Of a stretch of 47,623 bases of DNA, positions 28,097-30,100 are shown in pieces. The stretch lies in IMG/VR virus record IMGVR_UViG_2541047842_000006. One strand, written 5' to 3'. Numbering within the stretch: the stretch's first letter is position 1; each line of letters opens with the position of its first letter. The notes beneath the pieces are model-generated. The model worked only from the letters and a program-made list of their open reading frames with translations. It was not told the DNA's origin and did not search any database. This stretch comes from a virus (Duplodnaviria; Heunggongvirae; Uroviricota; Caudoviricetes). The translations under genes were made by a program, and so were the position numbers.

Positions 28097-28363
28097 GCAA
28101 AAAAGCTCCCGAAGGAGCCTTCATTTTCACTTTTTTAAATCCAACGACAGACGGCTGGCATTTAAGTATTGTGAAATATTATCAAATGTAATCATCATTG
28201 ATTTACAAAAGATACATTTTGCCCCGAAAGGATTCATGTCAGAAACATCAAAAGATGATGTTCTATACTGGGAACCATGACAACACGGGCATCTAAAGTG
28301 AATATGGTTTGTAATATTGTCTACCTCAAAGCGCCACTACATGAACAGCGGCAGGACCTTTAG

Positions 28364-29558
28364 GGAAGGTGCGAACAAGTCCCTGATATGAGATCATGTT
28401 TGTCATCTGGAGCCATGGAACAGGGTTCATCATGAGTCATCAACTTACCTTCGCCGACAGTGAATTCAGCAGTAAGCGCCGTCAGACCAGAAAAGAGATT
28501 TTCTTGTCCCGCATGGAGCAGATTCTGCCATGGCAAAACATGGTGGAAGTCATCGAGCCGTTTTACCCCAAGGCTGGTAATGGCCGGCGACCTTATCCGC
28601 TGGAAACCATGCTACGCATTCACTGCATGCAGCATTGGTACAACCTGAGCGATGGCGCGATGGAAGATGCTCTGTACGAAATCGCCTCCATGCGTCTGTT
28701 TGCCCGGTTATCCCTGGATAGCGCCTTGCCTGACCGCACCACCATCATGAATTTCCGCCACCTGCTGGAGCAGCATCAACTGGCCCGCCAATTGTTCAAG
28801 ACCATCAATCGCTGGCTGGCCGAAGCAGGCGTCATGATGACTCAAGGCACCTTGGTCGATGCCACCATCATTGAGGCACCCAGCTCGACCAAGAACAAAG
28901 AGCAGCAACGCGATCCGGAGATGCATCAGACCAAGAAAGGCAATCAGTGGCACTTTGGCATGAAGGCCCACATTGGTGTCGATGCCAAGAGTGGCCTGAC
29001 CCACAGCCTGGTCACCACCGCGGCCAACGAGCATGACCTCAATCAGCTGGGTAATCTGCTGCATGGAGAGGAGCAATTTGTCTCAGCCGATGCCGGCTAC
29101 CAAGGGGCGCCACAGCGCGAGGAGCTGGCCGAGGTGGATGTGGACTGGCTGATCGCCGAGCGCCCCGGCAAGGTAAGAACCTTGAAACAGCATCCACGCA
29201 AGAACAAAACGGCCATCAACATCGAATCCATGAAAGCCAGCATCCGGGCCAAGGTGGAGCACCCATTTCGCATCATCAAGCGACAGTTCGGCTTCGTGAA
29301 AGCCAGATACAAGGGGTTGCTGAAAAACGATAACCAACTGGCGATGTTATTCACGCTGGCCAACCTGTTTCGGGCGGACCAAATGATACGTCAGTGGGAG
29401 AGATCTCACTAAAAACTGGGGATAACGCCTTAAATGGCGAAGAAACGGTCTAAATAGGCTGATTCAAGGCATTTACGGGAGAAAAAATCGGCTCAAACAT
29501 GAAGAAATGAAATGACTGAGTCAGCCGAGAAGAATTTCCCCGCTTATTCGCACCTTCC
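28364..29558 (+). mobile_element. IS5 insertion sequence, complete (1195 bp) with 4-bp TTAG target-site duplications
   Basis: terminal inverted repeats GGAAGGTGCGAACAAG (28364..) and CTTATTCGCACCTTCC (..29558); TTAG at 28360..28363 and 29559..29562; length 1195 bp. Confidence 0.95.
28432..29412 (+). CDS. insH: IS5 transposase InsH
   Basis: 326 aa from [18 protein letters not shown]...; recalled match to IS5 InsH. Confidence 0.95.
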
Positions 29559-30100
29559 TTAGGTCCGTTCTCAATACCAAATTCAACTTCCTGATTCTCA
29601 GTTAATGTTTTGAAATCGTTGCTCTGAATTGCTGAGAAATGGACAAACACATCTTTGCTGCCATCTTTCGGCGTGATGAAACCAAAACCTTTTTCAGGGT
29701 TAAACCATTTCACTAAACCAGTCATTTTGTTAGACATAATTATTACCTTTTGAAGAAATTAGCCCTTGGGCAGAATGGTCCGAAAAAAAATATCAGAGAG
29801 AAAAACCAACAAGGAAATCTCAAGAGGTACAAATAATAAAATTATAACAATGACTGCTTCAGATAAATTTGTAACAAACCAGAACACCATTAACGCATGA
29901 TTAACCACCCATAGCAAGGATTACTTTTGTAAAGAAAAACACAGCAATGAAAGAATAGCTTTATTTATTAATAATAACGTGTCATTCTGATTAAGACCTT
30001 TTATCTTACCCTTAAGATTTCAGGAATTTTGGCTCATGGAAGAGTCCTTTTTATTTAAATTTTACATTCCGCGATGTAAATGTTCCGATTTAATATTACC

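Follow-up and report, generated by a model that had tools for sequence, protein, structure and literature searches.

A complete IS5 in the prophage-borne cold-shock gene cspI of Escherichia coli points to a recent transposition into a CTAA target

The cold-shock gene cspI of an Escherichia coli prophage is interrupted by a complete copy of IS5, and this structure is very probably the product of a genuine, recent copy-and-paste transposition into a CTAA target, which left cspI a pseudogene with probably near-neutral effect. A lambdoid prophage of full length, located at the ydfJ/Qin site of the E. coli chromosome, makes up the whole stretch of DNA analyzed (47,623 nucleotides, referred to here as the window). 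The window encodes a truncated ydfJ (1-1284), pinQ, tail fibre, gpJ, tape measure, capsid, portal and terminase genes, as well as a lysis cassette, cspB/cspF, hokD, a DUF4209 gene (37020-38807), dicB and an exonuclease; the prophages of many E. coli genomes match it at 100% over tens of kb. The element and the gene that it splits comprise the following features:

28364-29558, plus strand: complete IS5, 1195 bp, read directly from the sequence
28364-28379, plus strand: IRL, GGAAGGTGCGAACAAG, the left 16-bp terminal inverted repeat of IS5
29543-29558, minus strand: IRR, GGAAGGTGCGAATAAG, the right 16-bp terminal inverted repeat of IS5
28433-29412, plus strand: insH/ins5A transposase gene, 326 aa, in the opposite orientation to cspI
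28360-28363, no strand assigned: left TTAG of the target-site duplication, directly outside IRL (CTAA on the gene strand)
29559-29562, no strand assigned: right TTAG of the target-site duplication, directly outside IRR
29559-29737, minus strand: cspI 5′ fragment, nt 1-179 (codons 1-59 and two bases of codon 60)
28326-28359, minus strand: cspI 3′ fragment, nt 180-213 including the stop (34 nt), encoding GPAAVHVVAL and the stop
29450-29737, minus strand: 95-aa chimeric ORF, CspI residues 1-60 joined to 35 residues read from the right end of IS5

Every testable hallmark of IS5 is present in the element, namely its length, inverted repeats, transposase, YTAR duplication and >99.6% identity to the reference. 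IS5 is a 1195-bp DDE element with 16-bp imperfect inverted repeats that transposes mainly by a copy/paste route (PMC11677980), and the length observed here agrees with the ∼1195 bp of that description and of the K-12 annotation. The 16-bp imperfect repeat GGAAGGTGCGAA(C/T)AAG is found at both ends of the element, where IRL and IRR agree at 15 of 16 positions. A pattern search returned only these 2 sites in the 47.6-kb window, against 0.04 expected by chance, and a repeat search ranked the pair as the longest and top inverted repeat of the window. Between the repeats, the insH frame is open and forms the single long ORF of IS5 (InsH/Ins5A, 326 aa, with an alternative upstream ATG at 28396 that would give 338 aa). 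Its product matches PF01609 (DDE_Tnp_1, 5.3e-35) and PF05598 (DUF772, 3.7e-21), and it is annotated as a 326-aa transposase in other assemblies and in K-12. The duplicated TTAG, CTAA on the gene strand, is a 4-bp sequence that fits YTAR, the target motif of IS5 (PMC5009759), and in the uninterrupted relative EC6868 the two BLAST segments overlap at precisely these bases. The initial annotation had described a complete 1195-bp IS5 with inverted repeats, insH and a TTAG duplication; on direct re-reading all of these are there, including the repeats and the duplication, whose absence it had named as grounds for abandoning the claim. A separate 58-aa ORF (28360-28536, minus strand) lies in the left end of IS5 and reaches the tip of the element; its TAA stop is supplied by the duplicated target CTAA, and its C-terminus thus depends on the insertion site.

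At the nucleotide level, the element is nearly identical to K-12 IS5A (1191/1195 nt) and fully identical to the IS5 in yqhG of strain EC6868 (1195/1195 nt). Four substitutions separate it from K-12 IS5A, at window positions 28417, 28731, 29228 and 29252 (IS5 positions 54, 368, 865 and 889): one lies upstream of the 326-aa start, one is silent, and two are coding, changing Tyr to Ser and Arg to Lys in InsH. These two residues lie just upstream of the conserved E in the C-terminal motif of the transposase. Other E. coli genomes carry this variant at many loci, which marks it as a common natural allele rather than a new element, and this spread suggests indirectly that the variant is active. EC6868 contains about 17 IS5 copies (18 matching places), and related genomes are likewise IS5-rich.

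The decisive test of insertion is the empty site, and sequence comparison proves it. A 2000-bp query centered on the in silico excision point was compared with complete E. coli genomes, many of which match it in one unbroken alignment at 100% identity, and 2,102 genomes carry ≥80% of it. The region is annotated there as rzpQ-cspI-ynfQ/ymcF-ynfN-gnsB. The flanks are thus contiguous elsewhere, and the window differs by IS5 and the four duplicated bases only. Two further structures, a composite transposon and an IS-mediated rearrangement, were considered and ruled out: the two flanks adjoin each other directly in the empty site, and the window holds just one IS5.

Excision in silico of IS5 together with one TTAG restores a 70-aa protein ending in ENGPKGPAAVHVVAL and the stop; the initial annotation had likewise claimed a restored Csp C-terminus. 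Both parts have to be removed, because the control excision of IS5 alone produces a frameshift and an early stop. The restored coding sequence is identical to cspI of K-12 MG1655 (b1552) at 213/213 nt, and sequence and synteny with K-12 together identify the gene as the cspI ortholog. The element sits inside codon 60, between cspI nt 179 and 180; the gene is therefore split near its 3′ end, as first described, but not after codon 59 as then stated. The target CTAA on the gene strand corresponds to nt 176-179, across codons 59 and 60, and is one of five YTAR sites in cspI. Codon 60 changes from AAA to AAG, and Lys60 is retained because IS5 begins with G on the cspI strand. Translation then continues into the element, so that the 95-aa csp ORF is explained by IS5, as the initial annotation had proposed: it is CspI(1-60) read through into the right end of the insertion.

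Against the 66 positions of the Pfam CSD profile (PF00313), restored CspI covers 1-65 (1.6e-31), whereas the fusion ORF covers 1-56 only; a single full-profile domain in a 70-aa protein is encoded only after excision and not by the gene as it stands. CspI aligns without gaps over its full length with CspA (PDB 2L15, 1MJC). Of the five strands the fusion ORF retains four, along with both RNA-binding motifs, and residual or aberrant activity of the fusion protein may therefore persist. The lost segment, GPAAVHVVAL, corresponds to the last strand of the known five-stranded CspA barrel. Because the insertion truncates the cold-shock domain, cspI is here likely a pseudogene, with likely loss of CspI function. 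The 95-aa ‘csp’ ORF is accordingly a pseudogene artefact caused by IS5, and its annotation as a novel cold-shock protein variant should be avoided.

The sequence of events that would produce this arrangement is simple. A standard IS5 would have been copied into the CTAA (YTAR) target at cspI nt 176-179, and repair of the staggered cut would have left the 4 bp TTAG/CTAA in duplicate. CspI would thereby have exchanged its last 10 residues, corresponding to the final beta-strand, for 35 residues encoded by IS5. In a lineage so rich in IS5, the event would be one hop among many.

The interrupted allele is restricted to one small lineage. A 2.2-kb query spanning the interrupted structure found it in none of 5,426 complete RefSeq E. 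coli genomes. No record among the complete E. coli genomes spans the left junction (120-bp query); exact matches numbered 0 for the left junction in GTDB representative genomes and 0 for the right junction in metagenome contigs. The only three records carrying ≥80% of the 2.2-kb query were examined and set aside as not the same allele, the element being different (ISKpn26-like) and at other positions. In a 153-billion-gene index, exact-sequence look-up of the 95-aa fusion protein returned two contigs:

GCA_000459335.1, KE700987.1, 4.94 Mb: carrier of the fusion ORF
GCA_964051205.1, OZ040512.1, 5.23 Mb: carrier of the fusion ORF

Both contigs are 100% identical to the window across positions 26450-32737 (6.3 kb). 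EC6868 is the closest complete genome: outside IS5, the flanks show 0 mismatches in 28,364 bp and 2 in 15,004 bp, and the only single-base differences over 43 kb are at 31087 (C vs T, in rrrQ) and 41722 (G vs A). The window and both carriers have C at 31087, where EC6868 has T; 31087C is common to all carriers and constitutes a clade marker. Combined, the absence of the junctions elsewhere, the shared flanks and SNP, and the identity of the IS copies point to one recent transposition event, passed down by descent in a small clade of an IS5-rich lineage. The description of the insertion as recent and datable thus stands in its first half, given a junction absent from 5,426 genomes, two flanks with so few mismatches to EC6868 and a sibling copy identical over all 1195 nt. 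‘Datable’ is an overstatement: with zero substitutions the IS5 copy provides an upper bound only and no clock, and with at least two other assemblies also carrying the allele, its age can be approached by phylogenetic bracketing only. A literature search found no paper on this IS5::cspI allele, and for ynfQ and ymcF it yielded one transcriptomics paper without direct bearing; neither the event nor the element is new in kind.

Genomic neighborhood analysis places a tightly packed set of small genes immediately downstream of cspI:

28127-28315, minus strand: ynfQ, 62 aa, a YmcF-like small cold-shock protein, 10 nt downstream of the cspI stop
28059-28124, minus strand: ynfR, tightly packed downstream gene
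27824-28054, minus strand: ynfN, tightly packed downstream gene
27479-27652, minus strand: gnsB, followed by a terminator-like site

The window retains all four genes intact. The gaps along cspI-ynfQ-ynfR-ynfN measure 10, 2 and 4 nt in K-12 and in relatives without the insertion, a spacing consistent with co-transcription of cspI with ynfQ-ynfN. From the start of cspI to the end of gnsB, the only strong intrinsic terminator-like site on the minus strand is at 27452-27431, just after gnsB, and there is a weak promoter-like match at 28283-28255 (minus strand). ynfQ has an annotated ATT start, two CxxC pairs and a YmcF-like Pfam assignment. Because this ATT start lies just 10 nt past the cspI stop, translational coupling of ynfQ to cspI is suggested, and IS5 would break it. 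With the element in place, transcripts from the cold-shock promoter would run into the right end of IS5, in which insH points against cspI, and ynfQ-ynfR-ynfN(-gnsB) would most likely be uncoupled from the cspI promoter. Spacing and orientation thus make polarity on these genes the most likely outcome, although the genes may use promoters of their own, for which the weak match at 28283-28255 is a candidate, or be read from within IS5.

The same short region has received other insertions. In STEC383 and NCTC10444, independent ISKpn26-like elements lie in ynfQ, 67-100 bp from the IS5 site (equivalent to window 28263-28296), and IS1A and IS903B insertions occur in the same 2-kb stretch in other genomes. 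The cspI-ynfQ stretch may be a small IS-accumulating region.

Although cspI is cold-induced, single deletions have only marginal effects, with redundancy among other Csp proteins (PMC12562117, PMC4956666). For K-12 cspI, the literature documents both induction by cold shock and an RNA-chaperone activity of its product. Because E. coli Csp proteins are redundant and the effects of deleting cspI alone are marginal, the insertion is expected to be probably neutral or nearly so. A different reading, which we consider improbable, is that the insertion is selected or regulatory: the cspI promoter would read into ins5CB and make transposition cold-responsive, or the IS5 left end would alter expression of ynfQ-ynfR-ynfN-gnsB. 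The geometry is in its favor, as transcription from cspI enters IS5 in the ins5CB direction (insH being reverse to cspI), and in K-12 forced ins5CB expression approximately doubles IS5 transposition and flanking promoters govern IS5 activity (PMC11677980). Persistence of the allele in at least two assemblies would also be in keeping with selection, as would the two independent insertions in ynfQ. Against this, the strand read from cspI has a terminator-like hairpin 33 nt into the right end of IS5, and the element reportedly carries terminators within it (PMC11677980); moreover, single cspI knockouts are nearly silent, and three nearby insertions in ∼5,400 genomes fit an AT-rich, YTAR-rich and dispensable prophage region. 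That cold shock drives ins5CB, giving this lineage temperature-responsive IS5 mobility together with lost cold induction of YnfQ, YnfR and YnfN, is for its part a long shot. If true, the insertion would couple IS5 mobility to temperature and strip these three small proteins of their cold induction.

The structural reading itself (IS5 boundaries, inverted repeats, duplication and excision) encountered no contrary evidence in the analysis. IS5 is multicopy in relatives such as EC6868, and repeated elements of this type are well known to cause misjoins, by which a collapsed repeat could have placed the element in cspI erroneously; a misjoin creates neither a perfect 4-bp YTAR duplication nor an exactly restorable empty site, and identical junctions occur in two separate assemblies of different chromosome size, which makes an assembly artefact exceedingly unlikely. 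Hardly more credible is an old insertion that was precisely excised elsewhere, or a hotspot hit recurrently in the different carriers. IS5 does prefer YTAR targets and hop locally (PMC5009759), and other IS5-family insertions do cluster nearby, but ∼2,100 genomes have the intact site, precise IS excision is very rare (1/857 events; PMC5009759), and the carriers share site, orientation, IS sequence and the private flanking SNP at 31087, all of which argues for one event inherited by descent. One recent copy-and-paste transposition remains the preferred account.

The finding is an ordinary one, and its use lies mainly in annotation, through the pseudogene call, and in lineage marking. The IS5::cspI junction is a handy lineage marker, so far present in two other public assemblies. 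The site is also a further case of IS5-family build-up in Qin-site prophages, within their dispensable cspI-ynfQ segment. Unless other csp genes are lost as well, no cold-shock phenotype is expected.

Comparison with known systems shows how closely the individual parts correspond to their K-12 counterparts. The window IS5 shares with K-12 IS5A its length, the 16-bp imperfect inverted repeats, an intact 326-aa DDE transposase and a 4-bp YTAR duplication, and the two are without differences in the 3′ 300 bp (the bent/IHF region). Similarly, K-12 cspI, a cold-inducible member of the CspA family in the Qin prophage, is identical to the excised window gene at every one of its 213 nt and has the same neighbors, with rzpQ upstream and ynfQ-ynfR-ynfN-gnsB downstream. 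Unlike the intact K-12 gene, the window cspI is split at nt 179/180 and beta-strand 5 cannot be encoded. The host prophage also differs, being full length here (head, tail and terminase genes), whereas K-12 keeps a Qin remnant only.

The ISKpn26-like elements of STEC383 and NCTC10444 are the nearest comparison by position. They belong to the IS5 family, are ∼94% identical to IS5, and lie within ∼100 bp of the window IS5 in the same orientation. However, they target ynfQ at other positions, and cspI is intact in both genomes, unlike in the window. The STEC383 copy is flanked by a CTAA duplication, and the NCTC10444 copy by an adjacent deletion. By type of event, the closest analogue is the IS5 in nmpC of the K-12 prophage DLP12, which likewise occupies a dispensable prophage-borne gene and is fixed as a pseudogene in one lineage; further K-12 analogues include the IS5 insertions in wbbL, lomR and yhiS. 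In the nmpC case, a flanking promoter can read into IS5 (PMC11677980). Relative to the K-12 cases, the window IS5 is reversed, and the cspI promoter faces the ins5CB strand.
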